Origin: Deltaproteobacteria bacterium
GTDB lineage: Bacteria; Myxococcota_A; UBA796; UBA2385
NCBI GenBank assembly: GCA_016792625.1
Contig: JAEUKK010000027.1
Location: 78,424-142,423, forward strand
DNA: 64,000 nt
Direction: 5' to 3'
This document shows, one piece after another, positions 24,328 to 54,739 of the stretch. A program made the translations under genes and the position numbers. How positions within the stretch are numbered: position 1 is the stretch's first letter; each line of letters starts with the position of its first letter. The notes beneath the pieces are model-generated. The model had not been told where the DNA came from and made no database searches. It saw only the letters and a list, made by a program, of their open reading frames with translations.

Positions 24328-25161
24328 TCAGGGCTTGGGCGCGGAGAGCGAGTTGAGCTCGTCAAAGCCCGGCAGCGTCGAGAGGTCGGGCACCAGCACG
24401 ATCTCGATGCGGCGGTTGCGGGCCCGGGCGTCGACGTTGGTGTTGGGCACGGTGGGGCGGCTGTCGCCGAAGGCCGCGGCGCTCACGTTGCCTGGGGCCA
24501 TCCCGCCCTCGATCAGGGCCTTGAGCACGGTGATCGCGCGGGCGCTGCTCAGCTCCCAGTTGGAGGGGAAGGTCGCGCTTTTGATCGGCACGTCGTCGGT
24601 GTGGCCCTCGACCTGAAAGCGCCGGTCGCCCAGGGTGGCCAGGATGGCGCCGACCTCCATCACCGCCTGCTTCCCTTGGGGGGAGAGGGCCGCTTTGCCG
24701 CTGCCGAACAGGATGTCGGTGGCCATCTCGACCACGAGGCGCCCGTCGACCACCTTGACCCGCAGCTTGCCCGACTCGACCATGCCGGCGAAGCGGGCGA
24801 GAAGTGACTTGTACTCGGCGATCCGGTCGTCGGCCGCCTTCTTGCGCGCGGCCAGCTCGGCGAGGGCGCGGCTCATGTCCATCACCGAGTCGGTCAGCTG
24901 ACCCTTCTCGGACATCAGCCGGGCGACGTCTTCCCGCAGCTTGTCGGCCTCGGCGCCCAGCGTGGCCGTGCGGCGCTCTTCGGCGTCGAGTGAGGCCATC
25001 AGGGCCTCGGACTCGGCCTTGCGGTCGCGCAGCGCCTCGCGGGTCTTGTCGAGGACAGCGGCCTGCTCGTTGTACTTGCGCTTGCTAACGCAGCCGGTGC
25101 CCAGGGCGAGGGCCAGGGCCACCAGCAGCAGCGCACGGGGAGCGGAGGAGAGGAGGGGCAT
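24328..25161 (-). CDS. OmpA/MotB-family peptidoglycan-binding lipoprotein with a coiled-coil N-region
   Basis: Lipobox ALALGTGCVS. Coiled coil of about 120 aa. C-terminal OmpA domain FQVEGHTDDVPI ... NWELSSARA ... NRRIEIVL. Confidence 0.8.
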   Translation of the reverse strand: MPLLSSAPRALLLVALALALGTGCVSKRKYNEQAAVLDKTREALRDRKAESEALMASLDAEERRTATLGAEADKLREDVARLMSEKGQLTDSVMDMSRALAELAARKKAADDRIAEYKSLLARFAGMVESGKLRVKVVDGRLVVEMATDILFGSGKAALSPQGKQAVMEVGAILATLGDRRFQVEGHTDDVPIKSATFPSNWELSSARAITVLKALIEGGMAPGNVSAAAFGDSRPTVPNTNVDARARNRRIEIVLVPDLSTLPGFDELNSLSAPKP

Positions 25162-25184
25162 CGAACACCCGTGGACAGAGAGGG

Positions 25185-30788: not shown

Positions 30789-30922
30789 GGCACGCTCAAA
30801 GGCACGGGGATGGGCGCCGGCTGGCGCCGTGGGGCGCGCGGCTGCGGGGGGTCAAGCCCCCGCACGCGGGTGCGGACGCCACGGTCCGGGGTGGTCCGGC
30901 CGGGTGGGCGCCCGCGCAGACC

Positions 30923-33079
30923 TCAGCGCTGCTCGCCGAGGCCCAGGGCCTTGGCTTCGGCGAGCAGGCCGGCCAGCTTCTCTTTGGCCGGGCCCTCGGC
31001 GCGGTCCATCATGCGGGCGATGACCGCGGCCAGGGTGCTCTGGGTGACGAGGCCGGTGAGGTTGGTCTCGGTGCCGCTGGTGGCCGCCTCGAGCACCTTT
31101 TGCGCCGAGCCATTGCCGTCGACCAGGCCGTCGAAGGCCGCGCCGAGGCCAGCGGCCTGGGTGAAGCGCTCGATGAACTGGCTCTCGCCGCCGATGATCT
31201 TGATGTCGGCGCTCTTGAATGCCTCGGCGAGGATGCGGGACTGGCTCTCGGCGATGGCCTTCTGGGCGTCGAGCTTGGCGATGGTGACCGCCTTGGCCTG
31301 CTCGAGGCGCAGGCGGAACTCCTCGTGGTCGCGCGCGCTGCCCTCCATCGCCTTCATCGCGCTCAGCTTCTCGGCGAGGCCGGCCGCCTCGGCCGACATC
31401 TTGCTGCGAATGACCGCCGCCTCGGCCTGGCCGGCCTTCTCGATCGCCACCGCCTCGGCCTCGCGCGCCTGGACCTCGGCGAGGCGCCGGGCCTTGAGCG
31501 CGTCGGCCTCGGCCACGCCGAGCTCGCGGGTGGCCTCGGCTTTGGACCGCCCCTCGGCCTGAATGAGGCCGATGTGCAGCTCTTTGACCTTGACGTCGGC
31601 CACGCCGACCTTCTCGTTGCCGTCGGCCTCGGCGGCCATGCGCTCGCGGGTGACCCGGGCTTGGGCCATCCCGAGCTTCTCGGTGGCGAGGGCCTCGGCC
31701 TCTTTCACCCGGGCGCTGGCCAGACCGGCGGCGGCCTCTTGGGCCTGGGTGCCTTCGGCGGCGCGGATCTTGGCTTGGGTCTCTTTCTCGGCTGCTTCAA
31801 GGCTGGCCTGCGCGGCCACGAGGCGCTCGCGGGCCTTGAACTCGGCGACCTTCTCTTGGGCCTCGGCGCTCTTGATGTCTTTGACCAACTTCTCTTGGGC
31901 CTCACCCTCGGCGAGGGTGACCTTGACGTCGCGGGTGCGGCCGGCCTCGGCCATGGCGCGCATGGTCTTGATGCGCTCCTCTTCTTCGGCCACGGTCTTG
32001 TCGACGACGATGCGGCCGCGGATCACGTCGGCGATGTTCTTCTTCTCGACCTCGAGCGCCTTCTCCTTCTCGATGCGCTGCAGCTCGACCGCGCGCTCCC
32101 GGGCCAAGATCTCCAGCTGGCGCTCCTTGGCCACCTGCTCGGTCTTGATCGCGACCACGCGCTCCTTGTCCTTTTGGGCGACCTCGACCTGCCGGTCCTT
32201 GTTGACGTTGCCCAGCGCGATCTCCTCGGCGGCCTTGATCCGGGCCAGCTCCGACTTGCGGTGCTCCTCGGCCTGGATCTTCTCGGCTTCGGCCGACTCA
32301 CGCGCCTTGACGCTGGCGATCTCGCGCTGCTGGCGGGCCTCGGCGTCGGCCCGGCGGCGGCCGAGCTCCATCACCGCTTCGTCGGCCTCGAGGTTCTGGC
32401 GGCCTAGCTCTTTGCGCTCGGCTTGGCGCAGGTCATTGGTCTTGACGTTCTGCCCCGCGGTGATCTCGGTGATCTTGCGGATGCCCGAGGCGTCGAGGAT
32501 GTTGTTCTTGTCGAGCTTGTCGAGCGGCGTCTGCTCGAGGTAGTCGATGGCCGCGTCGGTGAGGATGTAGCCCTCGAGGTCACGCCCGATGACGTCGATG
32601 ATCTGGTCCTTGAACACATCGCGCTGGGTGTAGAGCTCTTCGAAGTCGAGGCGTTTGCCCACGGTCTTGAGCGCCTCAGAGAATTTGGCCACAAACAGCT
32701 CTTCGAGGGTGTTCTGGTCGCTGGCCCGCGCGCAGCCGATGCCCTGGGCGACCTTGAGCACGTCCTCGGTGGTCTTGTTCACCTTCACGAAGAAGGTGAC
32801 CTTGATGTCGGCGCGGATGTTGTCTTTGCAGATCAGGCCCTCGTTCCCGCGGCGCTCGATCTCGATGGCCTTGACCGAGATGTTCATCACCTCCCACCGG
32901 TGGAAGATGGGGAGCACGACCCCGCCGGTGAAGGTGACCACGGGCTGGTCCTGCATCTTGTTGATGATGAGGGCAGAGCCTTGGTCGACCTTGCGGTAGC
33001 AGCTCGCGACGAAGGCGAGGATGCCGCCCCCGATCAGCAGCGCGAAGACGACGATGACGATGATTGCGGTGGTTCCCAT
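30923..33079 (-). CDS. Flotillin / SPFH (band 7) family protein, YqiK/FloT-like
   Basis: N-terminal TM anchor IIVIVVFALLIGGGILAFVA, then an SPFH domain, then a very long Glu/Ala/Lys-rich coiled coil (EA repeats) typical of flotillins. RBS GAGGAG upstream of the ATG. Confidence 0.85.
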   Translation of the reverse strand: MGTTAIIVIVVFALLIGGGILAFVASCYRKVDQGSALIINKMQDQPVVTFTGGVVLPIFHRWEVMNISVKAIEIERRGNEGLICKDNIRADIKVTFFVKVNKTTEDVLKVAQGIGCARASDQNTLEELFVAKFSEALKTVGKRLDFEELYTQRDVFKDQIIDVIGRDLEGYILTDAAIDYLEQTPLDKLDKNNILDASGIRKITEITAGQNVKTNDLRQAERKELGRQNLEADEAVMELGRRRADAEARQQREIASVKARESAEAEKIQAEEHRKSELARIKAAEEIALGNVNKDRQVEVAQKDKERVVAIKTEQVAKERQLEILARERAVELQRIEKEKALEVEKKNIADVIRGRIVVDKTVAEEEERIKTMRAMAEAGRTRDVKVTLAEGEAQEKLVKDIKSAEAQEKVAEFKARERLVAAQASLEAAEKETQAKIRAAEGTQAQEAAAGLASARVKEAEALATEKLGMAQARVTRERMAAEADGNEKVGVADVKVKELHIGLIQAEGRSKAEATRELGVAEADALKARRLAEVQAREAEAVAIEKAGQAEAAVIRSKMSAEAAGLAEKLSAMKAMEGSARDHEEFRLRLEQAKAVTIAKLDAQKAIAESQSRILAEAFKSADIKIIGGESQFIERFTQAAGLGAAFDGLVDGNGSAQKVLEAATSGTETNLTGLVTQSTLAAVIARMMDRAEGPAKEKLAGLLAEAKALGLGEQR

Positions 33080-33150
33080 GGCTCCTCAGGGGTACGGGGC
33101 GGTGATCGAGGCGAAGGAGAAAATAGGGGGAGGGTGGCTCGGCGCGTGAC

Positions 33151-33882
33151 TCAGCGCGTGGTCTGCGCCGGGGTGGCCCGTCGGGCGGAGGTGCGGGGCG
33201 CCGGCCCGCCCGGGTGGAGGGGCTCGATGACGAAGGCCTCGCGGGCGGGGTCGAAGTGCACGAGCAGCGCCTCATCACCCTTCTGCAGGCTGTTTTCATG
33301 ATCGCAGCGCACCTGAACCACCAGCAGGCTGCCCCCGTCGTCGATCTCGGCCTGGCCGAAGCGGCCGTCGACGCGCAGGGTCGAGAGGCGGCAGGCGCGC
33401 CCGATGAGCTCAGCGCGGCGGCGGGCGGGGCGCTCAGCGAAGACCGGGCCCAGCGGGCGGGCGGCGAGCGACCCGAGGACGACCCCGACCGCGAGGCTGC
33501 CCAGGCTCACCAGCCCGGCGGTGAGGCCCGCGGGCAGCGCGCCCGCCAACAGGGGGGCCCCCCAGGCCATGCCGCAGAAGCTGGCGATCCAGCCGAAGAA
33601 GATGACGAAGCTCAGCGCGACGGTGAGGGGGACCTGGCGCAGGCCCAGCACCTGCAGCAGCTTGGCGAGGCCGCTGATCCCCTCGACCGCCCCCTCGTGG
33701 CCCTGGGCGCCGTCGAGGTGAACATCGATGTCGACGTCAATGTCGCCGCTGCCGTCGATGTGCCAGATGTCGATGTCGAGGGCCCCGGCGATGACCAGCA
33801 GCCAGTAGAGGCCCACCACGAGCAGCGCCGCGGACCAGACCGCGGTGGGCAGGGCGAAGGCGACGTTGAGGAAGTCCATCAT
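33151..33882 (-). CDS. NfeD/YqiJ-like membrane protein (flotillin partner, C-terminal OB-fold)
   Basis: Several TM helices, then a C-terminal beta domain (RLSTLRVDGRFGQAEIDDGGSLLVVQVRCD ... GDEALLVHFDPAREAFVIEPL). Lies directly upstream of flotillin, as in yqiJ-yqiK / nfeD-floT operons. Confidence 0.6.
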   Translation of the reverse strand: MMDFLNVAFALPTAVWSAALLVVGLYWLLVIAGALDIDIWHIDGSGDIDVDIDVHLDGAQGHEGAVEGISGLAKLLQVLGLRQVPLTVALSFVIFFGWIASFCGMAWGAPLLAGALPAGLTAGLVSLGSLAVGVVLGSLAARPLGPVFAERPARRRAELIGRACRLSTLRVDGRFGQAEIDDGGSLLVVQVRCDHENSLQKGDEALLVHFDPAREAFVIEPLHPGGPAPRTSARRATPAQTTR

Positions 33883-33959
33883 CGCGGGCGGCGCCTGGGG
33901 AGCGGGGCGGGTGCGGGCGGAGCGGCCGCGGGGGCAGGGTATTGCCGCACGCGGGCCGT

Positions 33960-34472
33960 CTATTGCCTTGGGTTGGCGGGTGTTGTCGTCGGGCGGAGCT
34001 GTTCGAGCAGGCCCCGGCCCGCCCGCAGGCAGAGGTCGTGGACGAGCGCGAAGCCCTCCGGGCCACCGTAGTAGGGGTCGGGGACCTCAGCCCCCGGCGG
34101 CGAGAGGGGGTCGAAGCTGCGCAGCAGGGCGAGCCGCGCGCGGGGCTTGGCCGGCGCGCGGGCCCGCAGCGCCTCGAGGTTGTGCGCGTCGAGCGCGATG
34201 ATCCAGTCGAAGCGCTGAAAGTCATCGGGCCGCAGCCCCCGGGCGCGGTGGCGCAGGGCGAGCCCGCGGCGGGCCGCTTCGGCCGCGCTGCGGGGGTCGG
34301 GCGCCTCGCCGGCGTGCAGGTCGATGGTGCCCGCGCTGTCGATGTCGAAGCGCGACCCGAGCCCTTCCGCGGCGACCAGGTCGGCGAAGATGGCCTCTGC
34401 GACGGGGCTTCGGCAGATGTTGCCCATGCACACGAAGAGCACGCCCAGGCGCTCGCCCGCTCCGCTCGTCAT
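33960..34472 (-). CDS. Low-molecular-weight protein tyrosine phosphatase
   Basis: P-loop VLFVCMGNICRSPVAE (CX5R) and the DPYYG motif. The ORF 33960..34517 is trimmed to MTSGAGERLGVLFV. Confidence 0.8.
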   Translation of the reverse strand: MTSGAGERLGVLFVCMGNICRSPVAEAIFADLVAAEGLGSRFDIDSAGTIDLHAGEAPDPRSAAEAARRGLALRHRARGLRPDDFQRFDWIIALDAHNLEALRARAPAKPRARLALLRSFDPLSPPGAEVPDPYYGGPEGFALVHDLCLRAGRGLLEQLRPTTTPANPRQ

Positions 34473-37726: not shown

Positions 37727-39676
37727 TCAGCGGCTGGGGATGACCGCGATGTCGGCGTCGTCGGGATCACCGCAGTCCGCGGTGTAGCCGTCGCCGTCGG
37801 TGTCGGTGCCCAGCGTCGGGCAGAAGCTCAGCACCCGACCCTCGAGGTCGTAGGGGTCGGTCGAGCGGAAGACGTCGCCGCTGGAGCCGCTGTAGATGTA
37901 GCCGAAGCGCTCCCACATCAGGCGCTGGCGGCCGGTGCCGAGGCCCAGCGCGCCGGTGTAGGGCTCGGCGGCCGACATGTCGGTCTCGCGGTCGGCGGTC
38001 GTACCCGCGCCGCAGCTCCAGCCGACCACCGCGTCGGTCGCGTAGGTGCCGCCGATGTCGTAGACCTCGTCGTGGCGGATCTCGAAGCTGCCGTCGATGA
38101 ACAGCAGGGCCGAGAAGGTGTTGGGGCTGTACAGGTCGGAGCTGTTCCAGAAGCTGGTGTTCACCCAGTAGATGCCCACCGCGTCGTCAAATTCGACCGC
38201 GTAGACCGCGCCCTGCTCTTCGGGGATCTCGGTCAGCTCGGCGGCCATGTCATCCCACAGCACGGCGATCATGGGGTTCTTCGCCGAGGTGCCCGTGGCC
38301 GAGCTCAACATGTCGTTCGACGAGGGGCTGAGGTCGTAGCTGCCCAGGCCGAAGTGCAGGCGGCCGTTGGTGTCGACCCGCACGCCGGTCTGGCTCGTGC
38401 CGCAGAAGGGGAAGGTGAGGGTGGGGAAGCTCACCGTCGTGATGCCGTCGTCGGTGTCGGTGAAGGTGACCTCGAGCGCGTCGGTGTCGGCCGCGTCGAC
38501 GAGGCCGTCGCAGTCGTTGTCGAGCGTGTCGGTGTCGGTCGACAGCTCGAGCGCGTAGGGGCGGATGGCCGCGTCGGTGTCGTCGCAGTCATCGCCGCCG
38601 TAGGCGCTCGCCGCGAAACCATCGACGTCCGCGTCGTAGTCATCGCCGCCCGCGCAGTCCTGGTCGAAGCCGTCGTACCAGAGCTCAGCGGCGCCGGGGT
38701 AGGTGGCCGCGTCGCTGTCATTGCAGTCAGTGCCGCTGTACTCATCGCTGTCGACGCCGTCGAGGTCGGCGTCGAAGTCGCTGGTGGTCGAGCAGTCCTG
38801 GTCGACGCCGTCGTACCAGATCTCGGTGGCCGCGGTGTTGATCGCGCTGTCGGTGTCGTTGCAGTCGGTGCCGCCGTAGGCGCTCGCGTCGAAGCTGTCG
38901 AGGTCGGCGTCATAGTCGCTGCCGCCGCTGCAGTCGTTGTCGGCGCCGTCGTACCAGGTCTCGGTGTTGCCCGGGTAGGCCGCCTCGTTCGTGTCGTCGC
39001 AGTCGGTGTTGTCGTCGACGTGCTCGGTGGGCTGGCTGCAGGCCACCGCGGGGGTGGCGGGGTCGCCGTAGCCGTCGCCGTCGGCGTCCCAGTACCAGGT
39101 AAACGCGTCGACGCTGTCGCTGCCGTCGATCACCGTGTCGCAGTTGTCGTCGATGCCGTTGCAGGACTCGTCGGCGTCGGGCGCGATGGCCGAGTTGGCG
39201 TCATCACAGTCACCGGCTTCGGCGGCGAGGCCGGCGGCGGCGCCGCAGGTGGTCACCGGCAGCGACTCGTCGCCGAAGCCGTCGCTGTCGGCGTCGGTGT
39301 AGTAGGTGAGCGTGCCGGTGACGCTGTCGTCCTCCATGTCGATGAGGCCGTCGCAGTCGTTGTCGATGCCGTCGCAGGCCTCGGTCGCGCTGGGGTTGAC
39401 CGCGGGGTCGCTGTCATCGCAGTCCACGTCGGCGGTGGCGCCGTCTTCGTCGGCGTCGACCGGGCCGCCGTCGGTGCCATCGGCGCCGTCTGCGCCATCG
39501 GCGGTGCCGTCGTCTGCGGTGCCGTCATCAGCGGTGCCGTCGTCTGCGGTGCCGTCATCAGCGGTGCCGTCATCGGCGGCGCCGCCGCTGTCCTTGTCGC
39601 TGGTCGGTTCGCAGCCGGTCAGCAGGCCGCCCGCGAGGGCGAGGAGGAGGGAGGGGAACAGGCGCGACATGGTCAT
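37727..39676 (-). CDS. Lipoprotein with myxobacterial MopE-like 'putative metal-binding' Cys/Asp-rich repeats
   Basis: MTMSRLFPSLLLALAGGLLTGCEP lipobox. (GTADD)x5 low-complexity linker. At least 7 repeats of ...DADGDGYG ... DCDD ... NP ... E.C(D/N)G.D(N/Q)DC(D/S)G.D. The C-terminal 280 aa form a different, unknown domain. The ORF 37727..40060 is trimmed to the ATG at 39676. Confidence 0.7.
   Translation of the reverse strand: MTMSRLFPSLLLALAGGLLTGCEPTSDKDSGGAADDGTADDGTADDGTADDGTADDGTADGADGADGTDGGPVDADEDGATADVDCDDSDPAVNPSATEACDGIDNDCDGLIDMEDDSVTGTLTYYTDADSDGFGDESLPVTTCGAAAGLAAEAGDCDDANSAIAPDADESCNGIDDNCDTVIDGSDSVDAFTWYWDADGDGYGDPATPAVACSQPTEHVDDNTDCDDTNEAAYPGNTETWYDGADNDCSGGSDYDADLDSFDASAYGGTDCNDTDSAINTAATEIWYDGVDQDCSTTSDFDADLDGVDSDEYSGTDCNDSDAATYPGAAELWYDGFDQDCAGGDDYDADVDGFAASAYGGDDCDDTDAAIRPYALELSTDTDTLDNDCDGLVDAADTDALEVTFTDTDDGITTVSFPTLTFPFCGTSQTGVRVDTNGRLHFGLGSYDLSPSSNDMLSSATGTSAKNPMIAVLWDDMAAELTEIPEEQGAVYAVEFDDAVGIYWVNTSFWNSSDLYSPNTFSALLFIDGSFEIRHDEVYDIGGTYATDAVVGWSCGAGTTADRETDMSAAEPYTGALGLGTGRQRLMWERFGYIYSGSSGDVFRSTDPYDLEGRVLSFCPTLGTDTDGDGYTADCGDPDDADIAVIPSR
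39485..39590. repeat. Tandem 15-bp repeat (gcggtgccgtc[a/g]tc[a/t]) encoding (A/T)DDGT x5-6 within the MopE-like lipoprotein gene
   Basis: Direct head-to-tail near-identical 15-nt units visible at 39490-39590. Confidence 0.6.
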
Positions 39677-39792
39677 GGAGTGCTCCGGCGGCAGTGGGGA
39701 CGCGCGGGCAACCCGCGCGAGCAGCGGCGCGATACCACGCCGATGCGCCACTGTCCTGACACCAGCCTCACATCCGGCGCCCCGGAGCCTCC

Positions 39793-41430
39793 ATGCGCGC
39801 TTCGCTCCTCCTCCTGTTGGGCCTCGGTCTCGGCTGTGCCTCGTCGACCGAGAAGGTGGAGGAGGGAGCGGACGGCGCAGGTGAAGCGGACGGCGCCACC
39901 GGTGGGGCCGACGCCGCCGATGGTGCGGCCGACGCTGGGGGTGAGGGGCAGGAAGAGGGTGCGGATGGCGCGGATGGCGCCGACGGCGCCGCCGTCGACG
40001 CGGACGGGGATGGGAGCCCCGCGCCCGCCGACTGCGACGACGACGATCCCCTGCGGTCACCCGAGCTGGTCGAGCTGCCCGACGACGGCATCGACAATGA
40101 CTGCAACCCTGCCACCTGCCCCGGGCTCGGCTTCGCTGACCGCCCCGTCGACTACGCCCTGCCTGAGGGCTACCCCGCGCTCTCGTTCATCGTGCAGCAG
40201 CGCGAGGCCCGCTGCGCCGACGGGCTGCGCGCCCACAGCCTGCGCGAGCTCGACGGCGACGGCTGGCTCGATCTGGTGGTCACCGCCAGCCCCTGCGGTG
40301 GCGAAGAGCCCGGCCTCGCCGCTTGGTGGCTGCACCGGGGTGGTCCCGATGGCTTCTCCGCCGTTGCCAGCCCCTGGGCTTTGCCCTCCGCCTTCCCCGC
40401 CGGCTCCCTCTCCGCGCCGACCGGGGTCGCTGACTGTGGGCTGGGCCGTCCGCGCTATGGTCTGCTCGATGTGAACGGCGACGGCGCCGACGATCTGGTG
40501 GCCTTCTCCGCCGCTTGCGGTGAAGGGGAGCCCGGCCTCTCCTCATGGCTGGTCGCTCCGAGCGACGGCGCGGCTGGCTTCGGCGCCGCCGCCGACTGGG
40601 CCCTGCCGGCCGACGCGCCGGCGGGTGGGCTGCGCGCGCCCTCCGCTCCCGCCGATTGTGGCGCAGGGCAGCCCGCCTACGCCTTGGTCGCGGCCCGCCG
40701 GGGCGCGGCGCCGGGGCTGATGTTCACCGGCGCGGCCTGCGGCGACGGCGCGCCCGGCGAGGGGAGCTGGACCTTCTCTGCCCCGGGCGCCGCGGGCTTC
40801 GCGGCGGGCGTGGAGTGGGCCTTGCCGGCGGGCCGTTGGGATGGGCTCACCGGCCTGCCCGACTGCGGCGCGGGCCGGCGCGGCTGGGCCACGCTCGACC
40901 TGACCGGCGATGGGCTGCTCGATCTGGTCGAGACCGAGGGCTGCGATGGCGGTGGGTGGACGCTCTTTGTCGGCGATGGTGCAGGCTTCTCCACCGAGGG
41001 GCGGCCGCTGAGCCTCCCCTCGGCCCTCGCTGGCCTGCTCCCCAGCCCCGGCGTGGCCGCCGACTGCGCGCTGGGGCGCCCGGCGGTCAGCCTGCTCAGC
41101 CTGCGCCCCGGCGCTGCGCCGGCCCTGGTGATCACCGCATCAGCCTGCGGAGACGACGCGCTGGGCACGAGCCTGTGGCGCGCCCACCTGCCGGTCGAGG
41201 GCGGCTGGGCGGAGGAGGCGGGGGAGCTGAACCTCCCGCCAGGCTTCTCGGCGGGCAGCTTCGCGGCGGTGGGCGGAGAGCGGGGCTGCGCCGCCGAGCG
41301 CCCCGGCTGGCTGCTGGCCGAGCTCACCGGGGATGGCCAGCTCGACGTCGTGATCACCGCGCTGCCCTGCCTCGAGGACGGCGTGGGCGCCGACCGCTGG
41401 CAGATCTACCCGGGGAGCTGCGCGCCCTAA
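39793..41430 (+). CDS. FG-GAP / VCBS-like repeat lipoprotein (integrin-alpha-like beta-propeller)
   Basis: Lipobox LLLLLGLGLGCASS. Acidic Gly/Ala/Asp linker. Repeated xDxxGDGxxDLV Ca-binding motifs (ELDGDGWLDLVV, LDVNGDGADDLV, DLTGDGLLDLVE, ELTGDGQLDVVI). One MopE-like DCDDDDP ... DGIDNDC unit near the N-terminus. Confidence 0.65.
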   Translation: MRASLLLLLGLGLGCASSTEKVEEGADGAGEADGATGGADAADGAADAGGEGQEEGADGADGADGAAVDADGDGSPAPADCDDDDPLRSPELVELPDDGIDNDCNPATCPGLGFADRPVDYALPEGYPALSFIVQQREARCADGLRAHSLRELDGDGWLDLVVTASPCGGEEPGLAAWWLHRGGPDGFSAVASPWALPSAFPAGSLSAPTGVADCGLGRPRYGLLDVNGDGADDLVAFSAACGEGEPGLSSWLVAPSDGAAGFGAAADWALPADAPAGGLRAPSAPADCGAGQPAYALVAARRGAAPGLMFTGAACGDGAPGEGSWTFSAPGAAGFAAGVEWALPAGRWDGLTGLPDCGAGRRGWATLDLTGDGLLDLVETEGCDGGGWTLFVGDGAGFSTEGRPLSLPSALAGLLPSPGVAADCALGRPAVSLLSLRPGAAPALVITASACGDDALGTSLWRAHLPVEGGWAEEAGELNLPPGFSAGSFAAVGGERGCAAERPGWLLAELTGDGQLDVVITALPCLEDGVGADRWQIYPGSCAP

Positions 41431-44242: not shown

Positions 44243-46234
44243 TCAGGGCAGCGGGATGGCGTCGCTGCAGCGCAGCTTGCCCACGGTGTTCCCGCGCAGG
44301 CAGATCACCGACTTGTTGCGGTCGGCGGAGAAGGTGCCCGTCCAGGCGCCCTCGGGGAAGACCACGCTCACCTCGCAGGTGCCGCTGGGGGCCTGCTCGG
44401 CGAGGATGCGCTCCTTCGCGGTCACCCCGCGCGAGAAGCCCTGCCCGCAGCGCAGCTCGACCGCGCGGGCCAGGGGGGCGCGCAGCTCGATGTCCACCGC
44501 CGCGCCGGGCGCCGCGGCGGGCGTGGGGGCCGGCGCGCGGCCGTGCTCACGTTGGGCGCAGCGCAGCTGGCCGGGGAGCGCGATGCGGCAGATCATGTCC
44601 ATCGACCTGTCGACCATGACCTGCGCGCGGGCGTCTTCGTCGGGCGGGAAGGTGGCCGAGACGGTGCAGCGCCCAGCGGGGATCTGCATCATCGCCACCC
44701 GCTCCGGGCTGCGACCGGCCTGCGAGAGGCCGTTGTCGCAGGCCAGGGCCACGCTGCGGGCCAGGGCCACCTCGACGAAGAGGTCGTGCGGGCCGAGCGT
44801 GCCCTCGGGGCGCGGCCAGGGCGGTGGGCCCTCTTTGGGGGTGATCGGGGTGGGCGCGGCGGCCCCCTCGGCCCCGGGCGGCGGCGCGCCGGGCTGGATC
44901 GGGTCGTCGGTGAGGGCGAGGGCGCGATCAGGGCGAGGCGCTGCGCCATCGTCGGTGGGGGTGAGCCCCTCCTCCTCGGGGAGGACGGTGACCGGGCCGG
45001 CGGGAGGGGCCTCGGCCACGCCGTCCCCCGGCACATCTCCACCCCCGCGCACGGTCACCGGGCCGGCGTTGGCGGCTTGGTTGGGGCCCGCTTGGTCGGT
45101 GGCCACGTCGGGGCCGTCCATCGGACCGAAGTAGGGCAGCCAGAACCGGCGGAGCACAAAACCGCCCGAGAGGGTGAGGAGGACCGCCCCCGCGATCACC
45201 CCCGCCGCGATCTTCGCCCGGCGCTGGGCCCGGGCGTCGGCCTCGATCTCGGCCTTGGCCTTTTTGAGAGGGCGCAGCAGGCCGTCGTTGTCGAACTTGG
45301 CCTCGCCGTGGTCAGCCTCGCCGCTGGCGCTCGGGCCGCGCGGATCTTTGGCCACCGCGGTGGTCGCCGCGCCGACCGGGGCCGGCCGCTCGCGGGGCGC
45401 GCCCCCGACCCGCTCGTCGGCCCAGGTCGACAGCCAGGCGCCAGGAAGGTTGGGGATGATCATGCGCAGCTGGCGGGCCACGTCGCGGGCCGGCGGGCGC
45501 ATGTCGGGGTTGGCGGCGAAGCAGCCGCGCAGCAGGTCGCCGAGCTCGGCGGGCAGGGCTGGGTCGAGCTGGCCCACCGCCGCGTGAATGGCGGCGTCGA
45601 CGTCGTCGGGCCCGCTGGCGGCCAGCTGCGGGTTGGACCCGAGCAGACAGGCGTAGAGCAGGCAGCCGAGGTTCAGCACGTCGTTGGCCGGCGTCTCGGT
45701 CGGGTGCAGGGCGCGGTGCAGGCCATAGTCGGTCAGCACCACCTCGCCCGCGCCGGTCACTAGCACGTGGTCGGGCACCACCGCGCCGTGGGCCAGCTCG
45801 AGCGGCCGGATGCTGTCGGGGCTCAGCGCCCCGTGCGCGGCGTGCAGGGCCCAGGCCAGCTCGAGCGCGAGCTCGGCGGCGGCCCGCGGCGGCATCGGGC
45901 CGGTCTGCAGCAGGTCGCGCAGGCTTCGCCCGCTCACCTCGGGGCTGACCGCGGCGGGCACACCCCCGACCGGGATCATCGCTTCGATGTGGCCGATGTT
46001 CGGGTTCTTGAGGCCCTCGAGGATGGCCATGTCTTTGCGCACGCGCTCGAGGAAGGGCGCCTCGCGCGCGGCCCGTGTGTCGAGCACGGTGACCACGACA
46101 GCCCGCTGGACCCCCTCGGGGTCGGTCGCCGTGCCTCGCCACTGGGTGCCAAAGGCGCTGGCGCCGAGCTTCTCGTGCAGCTCGTAGCTGGAGCTCGGCG
46201 CGTCTGTCGGGCCGCTCATGCGGTCTGCCCCCAC
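44243..46234 (-). CDS. Membrane-anchored protein-kinase-like protein (probable pseudokinase) with an extracytoplasmic Cys-rich domain
   Basis: Kinase-like N-domain: Gly-loop-like LGASAFGTQW. The beta3 Lys is replaced (VVVTVLD). The HRD motif is degenerate (LAHGAVVPDHVLV). DYG stands in place of DFG. Single TM helix IAAGVIAGAVLLTLSGGFVL. C-terminal region of about 270 aa with at least 8 Cys. Confidence 0.6.
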   Translation of the reverse strand: MGADRMSGPTDAPSSSYELHEKLGASAFGTQWRGTATDPEGVQRAVVVTVLDTRAAREAPFLERVRKDMAILEGLKNPNIGHIEAMIPVGGVPAAVSPEVSGRSLRDLLQTGPMPPRAAAELALELAWALHAAHGALSPDSIRPLELAHGAVVPDHVLVTGAGEVVLTDYGLHRALHPTETPANDVLNLGCLLYACLLGSNPQLAASGPDDVDAAIHAAVGQLDPALPAELGDLLRGCFAANPDMRPPARDVARQLRMIIPNLPGAWLSTWADERVGGAPRERPAPVGAATTAVAKDPRGPSASGEADHGEAKFDNDGLLRPLKKAKAEIEADARAQRRAKIAAGVIAGAVLLTLSGGFVLRRFWLPYFGPMDGPDVATDQAGPNQAANAGPVTVRGGGDVPGDGVAEAPPAGPVTVLPEEEGLTPTDDGAAPRPDRALALTDDPIQPGAPPPGAEGAAAPTPITPKEGPPPWPRPEGTLGPHDLFVEVALARSVALACDNGLSQAGRSPERVAMMQIPAGRCTVSATFPPDEDARAQVMVDRSMDMICRIALPGQLRCAQREHGRAPAPTPAAAPGAAVDIELRAPLARAVELRCGQGFSRGVTAKERILAEQAPSGTCEVSVVFPEGAWTGTFSADRNKSVICLRGNTVGKLRCSDAIPLP

Positions 46235-46347
46235 CTGCGGCCCGCCCGAGGGGGGATTGACGCAGCCGAGGCCAATCCGCCGCCCGTGTCTGGCCGCCGC
46301 AGCACCATCCCACCTGCGGAGGCCCGCGGGCAGGGGTTACCGGAAAA

Positions 46348-47325
46348 TTACGTAGCCGTCGTGATCTTCGGCGCAGTTTGGGTGGAGGAGGCCGGGCCCG
46401 GGTGGAGCGCGGTCATGCCCAGCCAGACCACCGAGAGCCAGACCGCGTCGGCGAGGAGCAGGTGGACCAGCTGCGCCCAGACCGGGGCCAGCAGCGCGAG
46501 GTTGATGACACCCACAGTGATCTGGGTGAGGAAGAGGCCAAGCACCACCAGCGCCGACCGCCGCGCCGCGGCCCCGCGGCCAAAACCCACCGCCACCGCG
46601 ACCACCGCGGTGAAGCCGCCGACCAGCACCGCGCCGAGCGGATGGAAGACCCGCAGGCGGATGAGCAGGTGGGCGGTGGGGGAGAGGTCCTGCGCGATCC
46701 CCTCGGCGAGGCTGCCCGCGGGGAAGAGCGTGTCGCCGAGCGCGGTCACCGCCCCGCTGGCCCCGAGCACCAGCAAGAGGCCGAGGTTGACGGCCAGCAG
46801 CACCAAGGGAGCGCCTTGGCCCCGCAGCTGCACCGCCGGCGCGCCCGTGGCCCAGCGGGCGGCGATGAGGTTGCTGGCCAGCAGCAAGAAGGTGTTGCCC
46901 AGGTGCACGGCCATGATGACCGCCCGGCCGATGCTGTCGTCTTGGCCGACCTTCTTGAGCAGCACGATCGCCGCGCCCACCCCCGCCTCGGCCAGCATGA
47001 AGCCCATGGTCACCAGGGCTGCCCGCCGCACCCGGTGCCCGGCCGGCCAGGCGCGCCAGCCCAAGATCAGCGTGGCGAGGGTCATCAAGAGCACCACCCC
47101 GCTGGTGAGCCGGTGGGTGAGCTCGATGAGGGTCTCGACCGCCGGCGCGCGCGGCACCAGCTCGCCGTTGCACATCGGCCAGTGATCACCGCAGCCGGCG
47201 CCCGAGCCCGAGGCCCGCACAAAGGCCCCCCAGGCGATCACGAAGAAGTTGACCAGCAGGGTGGCCCAGGCGAGGCGGGCGGCGCGCTGCTGCGCAGGCG
47301 AAGCGGCGGGGTCGGCGAAGAGCAT
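46348..47325 (-). CDS. ctaA: Heme A synthase (CtaA/COX15 family)
   Basis: GAFVRASGSGAGCGDHWPMCNG plus multiple TM helices and conserved His residues. The ORF 46348..48156 is trimmed to the ATG at 47325. Confidence 0.8.
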   Translation of the reverse strand: MLFADPAASPAQQRAARLAWATLLVNFFVIAWGAFVRASGSGAGCGDHWPMCNGELVPRAPAVETLIELTHRLTSGVVLLMTLATLILGWRAWPAGHRVRRAALVTMGFMLAEAGVGAAIVLLKKVGQDDSIGRAVIMAVHLGNTFLLLASNLIAARWATGAPAVQLRGQGAPLVLLAVNLGLLLVLGASGAVTALGDTLFPAGSLAEGIAQDLSPTAHLLIRLRVFHPLGAVLVGGFTAVVAVAVGFGRGAAARRSALVVLGLFLTQITVGVINLALLAPVWAQLVHLLLADAVWLSVVWLGMTALHPGPASSTQTAPKITTAT

Positions 47326-47584
47326 CGGGCGCCTCGACAGGGCGAGGCCCGGGCAGCGGAGGGCGCCGCGGCGCGGGCAAGGTGCCGCTCTAATCGGGGC
47401 GGAGGGGCGCGCCCCGGGCGGTGGTGGGCGGCGCGCCCAGATCAGCGCGCGGCAGGCAGGACACCGCGCTGCAATCGACGCAGCTTGCGCCGGTCCGGTA
47501 CAAGAGCTGCGGGAGGGCCTGCGTGGGCCGTACCGGGGCCGCCGTCGCCCCTGCACCCGCGCCCCCTTCCTCCTGGAGGAGCCT

Positions 47585-50119
47585 GTGTCCGAGAAGCGCA
47601 ACGCCGCCCCGTCTCCCTCCCTCGCCCCGGCCCGTGGGGGCGCGCCCGCCCGCGGCGGCGCGGGCTCCGCAGGCCCGACCGCTGCGCCGGTGATCGGCGC
47701 CGCGATGAACCAAGAGGTGGTCGAGGCCATCGGTTTTGCGCAGTCCGGCGACACCGTCGTGCTCCAAGAGATGATGGCGCGCGGCGTCGATGTCACCGCG
47801 GTGATGGGCGATATGTGGGCCCGCAGCAGCAGCCGCGAGAGCGAGAGCACCGTCGCCCAGGCCCACGCCGAGCCGACCGGCGCGATGTGGGCCGACGTCA
47901 CCCACCGCACCGAAGAGGCCGAAGAGCTGCGCGCAGGTATGGGCCGGCCCCCCGAGGTCGCCCCGGTGGCCGAGGTCGCGGTGCCCGAGGCCAAGCTGCC
48001 GCCGGCGGTCGAGATCCACGACATGGGCCCCGCCCAGCGCTGGGACAGCGTGGGCTCCGACATGGCCACCAGCGAAGAGGCGGGCGACTCCGACCGCATC
48101 GCCGAGATTCTGGTGACCGACTTGGGCACCGACCTCTCGGGCATGCCCATCCACATGGATCGGCCGGCTTGGCGGGTGGCCTCGACCTACAACGCCGAGG
48201 CGGTGATCGTCGACGAAGAGGTCTACCTCCACCGCAACGTCGAGGAGCGCATCTCTGGCGAGCTGGCTGGGCCCGAGCTGGGCGCCTCGCTCGACACCGA
48301 CGGCAGCCGCCTGGGCGGCCTCGTCTCCCCCTCCTGGCGCCCGCCCTTCCTGCGCCACTCGGGCTCGGCCGTGGTCATCACCGATGGCGGCTACACCATC
48401 GAGATGAAGAACGAAGAGGTCATCGTCTTTGACGAGACCGGCGAGCAGATCACCCACATCTGGGGCGACCCGCACGTCAACGAGGGCAAGGGCGGCGACG
48501 ACTGGCACTTCGGCGAAGACAGCACCTTCATCCTCCCCGATGGCACCAAGATCTGCCTCGACACCGAGCCCAACTCGGCCGGTGAGTGGTACGTCGTCGG
48601 CGTCGATGTTTTGGGCGGCAGCCAGCGCTACCACTACGGCGTGGGCGGCAAGCAGGGCATGACCCAAGACGCCGAAGAGTTCGACCTCGCCCACGAAGAC
48701 GCGAGCAAAGACAAGTCGGCCGGCGTCTTCGCCCTGGCCGCGGGCAACCAGTGGGCCAAGATGGGCGCCGACGGCGAGTTCTACGACGTCAATGATGAGA
48801 GCTGGGGCGGCTACCTGGCCACCCGCGACGTCACCGGCGGCGCCAAGGCCGAGGTGAACGACCGCCAAAAGGCCGTCGCTGGCGACAAAGACCTCAAGGC
48901 CCAAGCCAAGCAGAAAAAGGGCAAGGGCGCGGCTGACGACAGCTTGATCTCGAGCCACCGCGAGAGCACCGAGACCAAGGCCTGGGTCGCGGCCCAGCAG
49001 GTCGAGGTCGACGCCCAGACCGGCAAGGTGATCGACCCGCTGCGCTACATGCCCCAGGCCGTCGAGATCGACGACCGCGGCGAGCCCAACTACATCCCGG
49101 GCATCGAGCGCGAGATGGCGGTCAGCCAGCCCCACGGCGACTCCGCGCGCGCGGGCCAGCTGCTCAAGCCGAAGCTGGGCATCGACTTCTCCCGCTACGA
49201 CGTGCACATCGACGACGAGGCGCAGAAGGTCGCCTGGGCCTACAACGCCAACGCGGTCCTCTTTGGCCAGAGCCTGTATGTGCACGCCGATCTGGTCAAC
49301 CAGATCGAGGTCGAGCTCGCCGCGCCGGCGGTCGAGACCCGGGGCGCGGGCGCCGAAGAGACCACCCGCGACGGCTTCCTCATCGCGCCGAAGTGGCGGC
49401 CGCCCTTCGCCCGCCTCGCTGGCTCCGAGATCGTGATCACGCCCTCGGGCTACACCATCGAGATGAAGGGCGCTGACGTCATCGTCTTCGACGAGACCGG
49501 CGAGCAGATCACCCACATCTGGGGCGACCCCCACGTCAACGAGGGCAAGGGCGGCGACAACTGGCACTTCGGCCAGGACAGCACCTTCATCCTCCCCGAC
49601 GGCAGCAAGCTCTGCCTCGACACCGAGCAGAACGCGGGCGGCGAGTGGTACGTGGTCGGCGTCGACGTGCTCTGCGGCCGCGAGCGCTACCACTACGGGG
49701 TGGGCGACAAGGGCGGCATGACCGAGGACGCCCTCGACTGGGACAAGGACCACAAAGACGCCGCCGCCGACGCCTCGGCCGGTGTCTTCGCGCTCCAAGA
49801 GAACGGCCAGTGGGCCATTATGGCCAAGGACGGCAAGTTCTACGACGTGCGCGACGAGTCCTGGCAGTCCTACCTCAAGGACAAGGACGTCGACTTCGAC
49901 CCCAACAGCATGGCCAAGGGCCTGACCGAGAAGCAGATCGCGGTGGCTGACGACCGCGACCTCGCCCGCCAAGAGGCGGCCCAAGACAATGGCTGGGGTC
50001 GCTCCCGCCCGGTGACCAGCGGCGGCAAGCGCTACCACCGCTTTGAGAGCATGAAGATCGAGGCCGAGCTGATGATGCTCCTGCGCGACGACAAGATCGT
50101 CCAGCGCCGCATCGGCTGA
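47585..50119 (+). CDS. Hypothetical cytoplasmic protein built from a tandem duplication of a ~350-aa module containing GDPH motifs
   Basis: RBS ggagga upstream of the GTG at 47585. No signal peptide. Two modules share near-identical segments: GYTIEMK..VIVFDETGEQITHIWGDPHVNEGKGGD(D/N)WHFG(E/Q)DSTFILPDG.K.CLDTE ... GEWYVVGVDVL.G..RYHYGVG.K.GMT.DA. The ORF 47249..50119 is trimmed. Confidence 0.6.
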   Translation: MSEKRNAAPSPSLAPARGGAPARGGAGSAGPTAAPVIGAAMNQEVVEAIGFAQSGDTVVLQEMMARGVDVTAVMGDMWARSSSRESESTVAQAHAEPTGAMWADVTHRTEEAEELRAGMGRPPEVAPVAEVAVPEAKLPPAVEIHDMGPAQRWDSVGSDMATSEEAGDSDRIAEILVTDLGTDLSGMPIHMDRPAWRVASTYNAEAVIVDEEVYLHRNVEERISGELAGPELGASLDTDGSRLGGLVSPSWRPPFLRHSGSAVVITDGGYTIEMKNEEVIVFDETGEQITHIWGDPHVNEGKGGDDWHFGEDSTFILPDGTKICLDTEPNSAGEWYVVGVDVLGGSQRYHYGVGGKQGMTQDAEEFDLAHEDASKDKSAGVFALAAGNQWAKMGADGEFYDVNDESWGGYLATRDVTGGAKAEVNDRQKAVAGDKDLKAQAKQKKGKGAADDSLISSHRESTETKAWVAAQQVEVDAQTGKVIDPLRYMPQAVEIDDRGEPNYIPGIEREMAVSQPHGDSARAGQLLKPKLGIDFSRYDVHIDDEAQKVAWAYNANAVLFGQSLYVHADLVNQIEVELAAPAVETRGAGAEETTRDGFLIAPKWRPPFARLAGSEIVITPSGYTIEMKGADVIVFDETGEQITHIWGDPHVNEGKGGDNWHFGQDSTFILPDGSKLCLDTEQNAGGEWYVVGVDVLCGRERYHYGVGDKGGMTEDALDWDKDHKDAAADASAGVFALQENGQWAIMAKDGKFYDVRDESWQSYLKDKDVDFDPNSMAKGLTEKQIAVADDRDLARQEAAQDNGWGRSRPVTSGGKRYHRFESMKIEAELMMLLRDDKIVQRRIG
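48389..48840. repeat. Intragenic direct repeat, copy 1 (about 85-90% nt identity to copy 2)
   Basis: ggctacaccatcgagatgaag ... shared with 49448 onward. Long runs of identical nucleotides. Confidence 0.7.
49448..49900. repeat. Intragenic direct repeat, copy 2
   Basis: See copy 1. The copies lie 1059 bp apart in the same frame. Confidence 0.7.
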
Positions 50120-50259
50120 GGCTGCCCGTGGCGCGTCCTCCGCTCCGCTTGCAGCTTCTCCGACCCGCTTCTCCGACGAACCTCTCGCCGCCCTGGCCCT
50201 TGTGGCCCGGGCGGCGTAGTTGTGCGCGCCCACCCGAATCGGCGGCGGTCGACCCGCGC

Positions 50260-52931: not shown

Positions 52932-53813
52932 TCAGCTGGGCTCCGCTCCCTCGGGGCCCTCTTCATCGTCCCACCCGTCGTTCTCCCCCTCGGCCTCGAA
53001 GCCGGGCACGGGGTAGCCGAGGGCGGCGGCGGTCTGGGCCGCTTCGGCCGCCCCGGGCAGATCGATGGGTCCGCCCTCTCCGTTGCGCCGCATGCGGGCG
53101 AGGTTCTGCGCGGCCAGCCCGCTGCCTGCCGCGGCGGCCACGGCGTAGCGGGCCCGGGCCTCGGCGAGGTCGACCGGGCGCCCCTCGCCGATCGCCGCGA
53201 AGACCCCGAGGTTGTACAGCGCGCGGGGGTGGCCCAGGGCGGCGGCTTTGGCGCACCAAGCGGTCGACTGGTCGGTGGGCGCGCCGCTGCTGCGCAAGAG
53301 CACGTGCACCTCGAACATGCCCTCTGGTGCGCCACTTTCGGCCGAGACCATCGCCAGCCGCAGCGCGAGCGCGGGGTCCGCTTCGACGCCGAGCCGGCGG
53401 GTGCAGAGGAAGGACGCGAAGAGGCTCGCCCGCGGCTCACCTGCCGCCACCGCCGGCTGCAGCGCCGCCCAGGCCGCGGGGCCCGCCTCGGGCCAGCCGC
53501 GCAGGGCCAGCCGGGCCAGGGCCTCGGGCGCGCCGGGGTCACCGGCTGCCTGGGCGCGGGTGTAGCAGTCCAGCGCCGCCTCGGGCTGATAGCCGAGCAC
53601 GTCGATGCCCTCGGCCCAGCAGTCGCCGAGCTCCCGCCAGGCCTCGGTGGCCCCGGCGGCGGCCGCGGCGGCGTAGAGGCCGGGCAGGCGCTCGGCCTCT
53701 TCGACCGACAGCAGGCCGATCATCGCCTCGGCGCGCAGCAGGGCGTCGCGCAGGGCGCGGGCCTGCTCGAGCGGGCTGCGCGGATCATCCTCCAGCTCGG
53801 TGGGCTCGGTCAT
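52932..53813 (-). CDS. Sel1-like (TPR-like) repeat protein
   Basis: Repeats of A..W..KAAA.G...A.YNLG..Y..G type (WCAKAAALGHPRALYNLGVFAAIGEG ...). Trimmed to the ATG at 53813. Confidence 0.6.
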   Translation of the reverse strand: MTEPTELEDDPRSPLEQARALRDALLRAEAMIGLLSVEEAERLPGLYAAAAAAGATEAWRELGDCWAEGIDVLGYQPEAALDCYTRAQAAGDPGAPEALARLALRGWPEAGPAAWAALQPAVAAGEPRASLFASFLCTRRLGVEADPALALRLAMVSAESGAPEGMFEVHVLLRSSGAPTDQSTAWCAKAAALGHPRALYNLGVFAAIGEGRPVDLAEARARYAVAAAAGSGLAAQNLARMRRNGEGGPIDLPGAAEAAQTAAALGYPVPGFEAEGENDGWDDEEGPEGAEPS

Positions 53814-53830
53814 CACAACCTCCGCGGGGC

Positions 53831-54739
53831 TCAAGAGATGAGGAGCTCGGCCACCCGGCCGCGGCTCGAGGCCCGGCTGTTGATCGCCCGGCCGCACAGC
53901 ACGGTGCGGTGGTGGAAGCTGCCCTGGTAGAGCTCCCGCACGGTCGCCGTGTCGGAATTGCTGAGCAGCACGTGCACCCCGCGGTCTTTGAGCGCGGCGG
54001 CCACGTCGCGCAGCCGCGCTTGGTCGGCCATGCTGAAGCCGTCGGCGGTGTAGCTGGTGAAGTCGGCCGTGTGGCTGACCGGCACATAGGGCGGGTCGAA
54101 GTACACGAAGTCGCCGGGCAGGGCGCGGTCGAGCACGCTGTCGAAGGGCGCGTGCTCGATGTGGGCGCCGGCCAGGGCGCGGCTGGCCACGCGCAGCCCC
54201 TCGGCGTCGCAGATCTGCGGGTCGGCGTAGCGGCCGAGCGGCACGTTGAAGCCGCCGCTGCGGTTGACCCGGTAGAGGCCGTTGTAGGCCGTCTTGTTCA
54301 AGTAGATGAACCAGGCGGCCACGTCGGTGTCGTCGTCGAACTTGTCCACGTCGATGGCCCGCACGGCGTAGAACTGCTCCTCGTCGTGGGCCTCGGCGTA
54401 GTCTTTGAGGCGCAAGATCAGCCCCTCGACGTCATTTTGCACCGCGCGCCAAGTGCGCACGAGGCGAATGTTCACGTCCGACAGGCTGGCCCAGGCGCCC
54501 GGGCGCACAAAACGCCCCGCCAGCGCGAAGAAGAGCGCGCCGCCGCCCACAAATGGCTCGTGGTAGCGCCGAAAGCCCGCCGGTGCGCCCTCGAGCAGCT
54601 CGTCGATCAGGCGGCGCTTGCCGCCGGCCCACTTCACGAAGGGGCGGGCCTGGGCGGGGGGCTGCGCGGGGAGCAGGCCAGGGTGGGCGAGCTGCTGCGC
54701 GCCGGGCCGGGGCAGGGCACGGAGGGAGGGTGCGGGCAT
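53831..54739 (-). CDS. DNA adenine methyltransferase (Dam / D12 class N6-adenine MTase)
   Basis: N-terminal FVKWAGGKRRL, the FxGxG SAM motif EPFVGGGALFF, and catalytic DPPY (VYFDPPYVPVS). Confidence 0.8.
   Translation of the reverse strand: MPAPSLRALPRPGAQQLAHPGLLPAQPPAQARPFVKWAGGKRRLIDELLEGAPAGFRRYHEPFVGGGALFFALAGRFVRPGAWASLSDVNIRLVRTWRAVQNDVEGLILRLKDYAEAHDEEQFYAVRAIDVDKFDDDTDVAAWFIYLNKTAYNGLYRVNRSGGFNVPLGRYADPQICDAEGLRVASRALAGAHIEHAPFDSVLDRALPGDFVYFDPPYVPVSHTADFTSYTADGFSMADQARLRDVAAALKDRGVHVLLSNSDTATVRELYQGSFHHRTVLCGRAINSRASSRGRVAELLIS

Follow-up and report, generated by a model that had tools for sequence, protein, structure and literature searches.

DUF1521 is the MIIA domain, in which Ca2+ binding leads to cleavage after the Asp of a GDPH motif, and substitution of this Asp by Ala blocks the reaction (PMC6506597). 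The conserved site is GD'PHV (PMC9185962). Without metal, the MIIA domain of VIC_001052 is mostly disordered; on binding two Ca2+ ions with low-micromolar Kd it folds and cleaves, and the D116A substitution blocks cleavage (PMC6506597). NopE1 and NopE2 are translocated by the type III secretion system (T3SS) (PMC9569860), and a variant of NopE1 that cannot be cleaved has no activity in planta (PMC8367979). The MIIA proteins of Bradyrhizobium are confined to T3SS-positive strains (PMC7643967), and all characterised MIIA proteins are either secreted by a T3SS or encoded with one (PMC6506597; PMC9569860; PMC7643967). Here, we describe a gene at 47585 to 50119 on the + strand of a stretch of 64,000 nucleotides (the window) from a Deltaproteobacteria bacterium (GenBank assembly GCA_016792625.1, contig JAEUKK010000027.1, positions 78,424 to 142,423). 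Its product is probably a leaderless acidic polyprotein, in which a disordered N-terminus is followed by two ancient modules of a degenerate DUF4157-like and an MIIA domain that would cleave themselves when triggered by Ca2+, and in which the core of the modules has been homogenised by gene conversion.

Both GDPH regions of the protein belong to the MIIA/DUF1521 family in a divergent form. PF07481 (DUF1521, IPR011086) matches the whole protein in two stretches with 80.7 bits (E 1.6e-22), and each copy by itself exceeds the curated cut-off of 23.6 bits (47.1 bits for module 1 and 42.7 bits for module 2). The broad domain of module 1 spans residues ~250-450 (48332 to 48934) and is mostly beta; its Pfam core lies at residues 269-335 (48389 to 48589) and covers profile positions 17-86 of 169. 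In module 2 the broad domain spans residues ~600-805 (49382 to 49999), with the Pfam core at residues 623-690 (49451 to 49654) and a predicted local distance difference test score (pLDDT) mostly above 90. The two GDPH motifs are G294 D295 P296 H297 (48464 to 48475) and G647 D648 P649 H650 (49523 to 49534). By the positions assigned in the MIIA literature (PMC6506597; PMC9185962), the predicted scissile bonds are D295-P296 and D648-P649. Both modules, of about 353 residues each, bear IWGDPHVNEGKGGD(D/N)WHFG..STFILPDG, exactly the string that a first-pass annotation of this DNA had quoted for each. Both modules read IWGDPHVNE, and 11 orthologues keep WGDPHVNE unchanged in each of the two modules (W293-E300 in module 1). 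The MIIA regions carry net charges of -15 and -19, in keeping with the strong acidity of MIIA domains. An AlphaFold2 (AF2) model of module 2, made from a 38-sequence alignment, reaches a mean pLDDT of 83.7 and exceeds 90 over the greater part of the MIIA domain, and the AF2 models give the same two-domain pattern of secondary structure in both modules. No sequence relative was found in the PDB with either the single protein or an 11-sequence profile. Pfam matches to Peptidase_M3 and Ricin_B were rejected, as they lie below the cut-offs and have 0 significant stretches. By analogy with the characterised domains, the GDPH motif is most likely an autoproteolytic site. The first-pass annotation had likened GDPH to an autoproteolytic site and had taken the missing signal peptide as compatible with an effector exported by a non-Sec route or with a cytoplasmic role. 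Self-cleavage and the likeness to a non-Sec effector are borne out in spirit, and PF07481 replaces the family with which it compared the motif.

The closest named systems share the motif with the window protein and differ in what surrounds it. NopE1 and NopE2 of Bradyrhizobium diazoefficiens USDA110 likewise have PF07481, the GD'PHV motif, an acidic domain and no Sec signal. According to Schirrmeister et al. 2011, the NopE1 domain is reportedly duplicated, with each copy cleaving independently. The window protein differs from this pair in phylum (Myxococcota-type metagenome-assembled genomes, MAGs), in having no T3SS neighbourhood, in a Pfam match limited to the N-terminal half of the model, in its weaker EF-hand-like loop, in the DUF4157-like domain that precedes each MIIA copy, and in its 353-residue repeat unit. 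VIC_001052 of Vibrio coralliilyticus, compared through its published description, has the same cleavage motif and predicted Ca2+ logic (PMC6506597), whereas it is a 370-residue protein with a single MIIA domain, and its gene lies in a T3SS cluster. Among plasmids, tblastn returned one DUF1521 record, WP_284173160.1 on the Bosea vestrisii plasmid NZ_CP126308. It resembles module 2 across YTI..WGDPHV..F..TF.L.DG.K (E 5e-12, 34% identity over 95 residues). In contrast to the window protein, the Bosea protein has one domain with a full Pfam match (219.6 bits, positions 1-163) and the canonical acidic loop DKDGDGKNDFDF, and its gene lies directly beside the rhizobial T3SS genes sctJ/L/N/Q/T/U.

Each MIIA domain appears, from profile matches, to be preceded by a degenerate eCIS_core (DUF4157)-like domain without HExxH; eCIS denotes the extracellular contractile injection systems. 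The cut-off of 22 bits for PF13699 is passed only when two stretches are added up, to 33.7 bits over the whole protein. The stretches are residues 177-218 in module 1 (48113 to 48238; 18.3 bits, profile positions 11-52 of 79) and residues 526-569 in module 2 (49160 to 49291; 21.2 bits, positions 9-52 of 79). Both matches sit in alpha/beta domains of about 90 residues, at residues ~140-228 and ~485-580, and the domain of module 2 is modelled by AF2 with pLDDT 85-98. The HExxH motif, as defined in PMC8213781, is missing: module 1 reads HRNVEE and module 2 HADLVN, and the orthologues have HRRVEE and HHDVYQ. In module 1, H216, R217, E220 and E221 are invariant in the orthologues. An exhaustive HMMER search of 1.84 billion representatives gave 321 relatives at E<=1e-3, and the complete DUF4157-like plus MIIA module is found in only ~7 clusters.

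The gene consists of 844 codons plus a stop, with a GTG start at 47585 and GGAGGAG 4 nt upstream. The start agrees with the N-termini of close and distant orthologues alike, which read MSEKR or MSDKR. The open reading frame (ORF) that ends at 50119 is judged coding, with 93% GC at third codon positions (GC3), and a dN/dS of 0.089 against the orthologue on contig L001 indicates strong purifying selection on the whole gene and rules out a pseudogene. Its GC content is 68.8% compared with ~75% in the neighbours. Horizontal transfer as a reading of this lower GC was rejected on the GC3 of 93%; the dip is due to an Asp/Glu/Lys-rich amino-acid composition and not to foreign origin. A promoter and terminator scan gave nothing that exceeded shuffled sequences. 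The product has a mass of 91 kDa, a pI of 4.6, a net charge of -64 and 3 Cys. It has no hydrophobic N-terminal segment, signal peptide or transmembrane segment in a Kyte-Doolittle scan with a 19-residue window; the highest mean is only 0.99, in agreement with the earlier remark that a signal peptide is missing. Residues 1-136 (47585 to 47992) are Ala/Gly/Pro-rich and predicted to be disordered; in the full-length AF2 model, residues 1-57, 59-64 and 66-136 have a pLDDT below 50. No Pfam family matches residues 1-122, and the N-terminal region is conserved by purifying selection (dN/dS 0.047). At the other end, residues 806-844 (50000 to 50116) form a basic tail (pI 10.9) with a helical end, in which RFxxxxxEAExMxLL is kept in the orthologues; compared with L001, its dN is 0. 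Searches of the protein against NCBIfam gave no meaningful match, and PADLOC gave no match for it.

The two modules are joined by a DNA repeat in which the second copy (49448 to 49747) lies 1059 nt downstream of the first (48389 to 48688). The spacing equals 353 codons and is in frame. Tandem Repeats Finder is silent on this period, which exceeds its 500-nt limit, and the repeat was defined by a direct-repeat search and BLAST. Identity between the copies is 86%, and the in-frame background at other offsets has a mean of 36% and a maximum of 44%. The longest stretches of exact identity measure 41 nt (48431-48471) and 27 nt (48473-48499). Identity varies along the repeat, with a peak of 98% at 48440-48499, 90% at 48500-48559 and ~50% around 48800. 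The 85-90% first given for 48389-48840 is too high, as these 452 nt are 78.5% identical. A self-alignment of the kind the first-pass annotation had proposed pairs, at the protein level, residues 126-448 with 477-805 at 53% identity (E 7e-119). The first halves of the modules are just 36% identical. An assembly artefact was considered for the repeat and rejected, since an independent MAG contig (L001), collinear with window positions 44286-50124 at 90% nucleotide identity, carries the same two modules.

The duplication itself is older than the split of orthologues that are now ~53% identical. A search of 5.8 billion proteins gave 37 relatives, ~20 of them full-length orthologues with 50-96% identity, and every one of these orthologues has two GDPH modules. 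In a neighbour-joining tree of GDPH domains, first modules (m1) group with first modules and second modules (m2) with second modules across genomes. The duplication is judged old because both modules are kept in orthologues that are only ~50-55% identical and because the modules group by position. The N-terminal, eCIS_core-like half of the module agrees with this order: each module of the window protein (Q) is closer to its orthologous counterpart (46% identity for Q_m1 with m1, 48% for Q_m2 with m2) than to its sister (36% between Q_m1 and Q_m2). Outside the core, synonymous sites are saturated. The dS between the paralogues is 0.685 and 0.609 in the two flanks of the core, and codon identity at shared residues there equals the expectation from codon usage (36 observed and 37.2 expected in one flank; 45 and 44.3 in the other). 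The duplication had been called recent, and these observations together largely refute that claim.

The number of modules varies in the wider family. Among 182 fetched relatives, 128 have one GDPH motif, 43 have two and 2 have three; the 37 relatives above include one with three modules and a few with a single module. Copy-number variation by homologous recombination, raised in the first-pass annotation, is possible in principle, given the exact runs of 41 and 27 nt and the relatives with one to three modules, but the nearest relatives all have two. The proposed comparison of copy number in related genomes thus turned up relatives with one, two or three modules, and two in all ~20 orthologues. 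The orthologues at related loci are all from Myxococcota-type MAGs. One seemingly single-module relative, P0040 (420 residues; L052, 10001-12227), is followed by two short ORFs, the second of which again matches DUF1521. It is probably a gene of two modules that frameshifts in a long-read assembly have broken up, and some other 'single-copy' members of the family may therefore be artefacts as well.

Within this old duplication, a short core is far more alike than its age would suggest. In the homogenised core (~48395-48575, residues 271-330), codon identity at shared residues is 46/49 compared with 38.3 expected (P~0.002, on ~49 codons in a segment picked post hoc). The dS between the paralogues is 0.158 in the core, below the 0.20 between the window gene and its 97%-identical orthologue. 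The N-terminal part of the MIIA domain is 79.7% identical between paralogues and 63-66% between orthologous modules. Diagnostic residues form a mosaic: Q_m1 holds m2-type residues around ...VIVFDETGEQITHIWGDPHVNEGKGGD, and Q_m2 holds m1-type residues in TE.N..GEWYVVGVDV. This confinement of homogenisation to ~180 nt around GDPH points to intragenic gene conversion, read from the alignments, over an ancient duplication. In the lineage of P0005, P0007 and P0008 (L002, L003 and L048), the first MIIA domain contains a longer, independent m2-type stretch, and these second-module residues place it in the m2 clade. This exchange appears to be an independent conversion event in the same region. The striking DNA identity of the repeat thus reflects amino-acid conservation, the codon bias that comes with a GC3 of 93%, and a short conversion tract.

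From homology with NopE1/NopE2 and VIC_001052, we infer the Ca2+ dependence, cleavage, export and biological role of the protein as follows. At the low Ca2+ level of the cytoplasm, the MIIA domains would be inactive and uncut. Once released or injected into Ca2+-rich surroundings, they would bind metal and fold. The folded domains would then cut their own backbone between Asp and Pro, at D295-P296 and D648-P649, and the predicted fragments have masses of 31.1, 38.2 and 22.0 kDa. Several points weigh against this account. PF07481 is matched only at profile positions ~17-88 of 169, and the C-terminal half of the domain is a distinct, longer and well-conserved region, unlike classical MIIA; the partial coverage is the reason for filing the protein as a divergent subfamily. 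The acidic loop that follows GDPHV is poorer in Asp: it reads VNEGKGGD(D/N)WHF here and VDKDGDGKNDFDF in Bosea, and other relatives have V[DN]E.DG..W[DH]F. Work with EF-hand mutants by Schirrmeister et al. 2011 (J Bacteriol 193:3733) is said to have found the EF-hand-like loop to be required. The loop is present but weakened here, which might change or abolish the dependence on Ca2+. Every characterised MIIA protein has a T3SS link, yet no T3SS lies nearby: genes for a T3SS, a type VI secretion system (T6SS) or an eCIS are absent by Pfam among the ~45 ORFs of the 64-kb window, and they are absent within ~10 kb at six other orthologue loci examined. Sheath, tube, baseplate and Afp15-type genes are likewise absent from the window and from the related loci examined. 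The synonymous excess in the core, finally, carries the post hoc choice of its ~49 codons with it.

Export of the protein by a T3SS (including the needleless T3SS*), by an eCIS or by no dedicated route each has some support, none of it direct. The last of these is unlikely in our view, but deserves to be taken seriously. The protein would then be intracellular or released by lysis or in vesicles, with the MIIA domains acting as Ca2+ or metal sensors or as non-cleaving structural beta-domains. Consistent with such a role, the gene stands in a housekeeping and regulatory context, with CtaA and a Ser/Thr kinase upstream and, in the P0004/P0009 clade, a kinase/GAF/PAS/HisKA sensor downstream; the EF-hand-like loop is weakened, and AF2 gives a well-packed fold without metal. 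On the other hand, the invariance of WGDPHVNE in both modules across orthologues argues for retained cleavage chemistry, and the literature searched holds no precedent for a cytoplasmic MIIA protein.

Self-cleaving delivery by an eCIS is a less probable alternative. The protein would be cargo or an eCIS-associated toxin (EAT), the disordered N-terminus serving for loading, the DUF4157-like domain as a mark, and the MIIA domains for the release of fragments in the target. DUF4157 is a marker and strong predictor of EATs (PMC8213781; PMC11297309). In AlgoCIS cargo, a disordered loading sequence precedes DUF4157, and loading does not need the latter (bioRxiv 10.64898/2026.05.27.728243). AlgoCIS Cgo1 and Cgo2 and the EATs of Geller et al. 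2021 have the same order of disordered N-terminus, DUF4157-like domain and C-terminal domain, and the low pLDDT of residues 1-136 makes the overall layout of the window protein resemble AlgoCIS-type cargo. The 33.7 bits of PF13699 over the two stretches point the same way. Unlike eCIS cargo, the window protein has a partial, sub-threshold match in each copy, limited to positions 9-52 of the 79-position profile, and no HExxH; in addition, the unit is duplicated and the C-terminal 'effector' would, by analogy, itself be a self-cleaving domain. Among known EATs, 88% are encoded within 10 genes of an eCIS operon (PMC11297309), whereas neither the window nor any of the six other loci examined has one. 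DUF1521 (PF07481) is also absent from the eCIS domain tables in the supplements of Geller et al. 2021.

About equally improbable is a T3SS substrate in the manner of NopE1 and VIC_001052, which in Myxococcota might be exported by the needleless T3SS* of contact-dependent prey killing. The T3SS link of every characterised MIIA protein and the position of the Bosea homologue beside sctJ/L/N/Q/T/U speak for this route, as do the absent leader, the acidity and the disordered N-terminus of the window protein. Myxobacteria are reported to build T3SS-like systems at prey contacts (PMC10433427; PMC12075869). Against this stand the lack of T3SS genes in the window and at the related loci examined, the only distant kinship to NopE-type MIIA (34% over 95 residues), and the fact that the organism is known as a MAG only.

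The first-pass annotation had compared the modules to VWD/RGM-type domains. The same GDPH tetrapeptide is cleaved in VWD/RGM proteins, and its Asp-Pro bond is hydrolysed without an external protease (PMC10880436). MUC2, FCGBP, RGMb and hemojuvelin share the tetrapeptide and this bond hydrolysis with what is predicted for the window protein, and the likeness ends there. VWD (PF00094) and RGM models are not among the Pfam matches at E<=1. A Foldseek search with the AF2 model of module 2 against the PDB gave nothing at E<=1e-3; the top matches have template-modelling scores of at most 0.14, and MUC2 is at rank 52, under unrelated folds. Four strands precede GDPH in the AF2 model, whereas in the VWD-like ITIH domains the motif lies between the first two strands (PMC10880436). 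In contrast to the disulfide-rich secreted VWD domains, the window protein has 3 Cys and no signal peptide. The resemblance is most readily read as convergence on a labile Asp-Pro bond, and the VWD/RGM assignment does not stand. A recent ~1.06-kb tandem duplication of VWD/RGM-type GDPH domains, for all the 86% identity over 300 nt, the in-frame spacing of 1059 nt and the shared tetrapeptide, is thus a very remote prospect against orthologues of 50-55% identity whose two modules cluster by position, saturated flanking synonymous sites and the missing sequence and fold matches.

The gene stands alone, with a COX15/CtaA gene upstream that diverges from it. A small gene of ~175 codons (50260 to ~50790, - strand) converges on it, with its stop 141 nt past the stop of the target gene. 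It is real by its frame-specific GC3 profile; no Pfam family matches it, and no link to the target gene is evident. A Ser/Thr kinase gene (44243-46234) lies two genes upstream. In the clade of P0009 (L047) and P0004 (L053/L054), the gene is followed by one for a ~2080-residue Ser/Thr kinase-AAA_16-GAF-PAS-HisKA protein and one for a hybrid response regulator/histidine kinase. The window as a whole has ~75% GC and contains MopE repeats, FG-GAP repeats, Ser/Thr kinases and a sigma-54 activator. At 37727-41430, two adjacent genes code for six copies of a MopE-type, putatively Cu-binding repeat (E 5e-51) and for FG-GAP repeats. This is typical of Myxococcota surface proteins and agrees with the taxonomic placement. 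A MotB/OmpA-like gene (24328-25203, - strand) matches the PADLOC models of ZorB (E 3.9e-28). It is directly downstream of a gene for an 1888-residue protein with DUF3686, DUF7902 and AAA ATPase domains (25185-30851, - strand), and two large ORFs without Pfam matches (30923-33085 and 33151-34086) belong to the same - strand cluster. PADLOC models matched neither the ATPase gene nor these two ORFs. The cluster (24328-34086) could be a Zorya-like or motor-coupled system of uncharacterised type. At 53831-54739 (- strand) lies a gene for a Dam-like D12 N6-adenine DNA methyltransferase (Pfam E 3.5e-53; PADLOC type II/orphan methyltransferase E 5e-85). No restriction partner is recognisable, and neither Pfam nor PADLOC gives a match for the neighbouring ORF (52932-53897).

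The self-cleaving family itself is already known through the characterised MIIA proteins. What is new is the phylum in which the domain occurs, its fusion to a degenerate DUF4157-like domain, the duplication of a 353-residue unit and a conversion restricted to the core. A bolder reading, which we regard as a long shot, is a small Myxococcota-restricted family in which a catalytically dead DUF4157 'cargo' domain was fused to a Ca2+-triggered MIIA domain and the unit was duplicated. A self-dismantling polyprotein would then be delivered by a contractile injection system or T3SS*, and its fragments would be freed only in a Ca2+-rich exterior or target. MIIA would replace the lost protease function of HExxH, and recurrent conversion would keep both sites identical so that both fire alike.

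MIIA domains have so far been T3SS effectors of Proteobacteria only, and here the domain is found in another phylum, with no T3SS nearby and fused to a domain that resembles an eCIS marker. It offers another setting for the question of what purpose Ca2+-triggered self-cleavage serves, and the role of the eCIS-marker domain is itself debated. The AF2 model, with pLDDT above 90 over most of the domain, offers a structural hypothesis for the cleavage site of a domain for which no PDB relative was found. In genomes with GC3 above 90%, a DNA identity of 85-98% in conserved paralogous segments does not alone prove a recent duplication. The restriction of conversion to the catalytic core, apparently independently in two lineages, would represent concerted evolution of a functional site.

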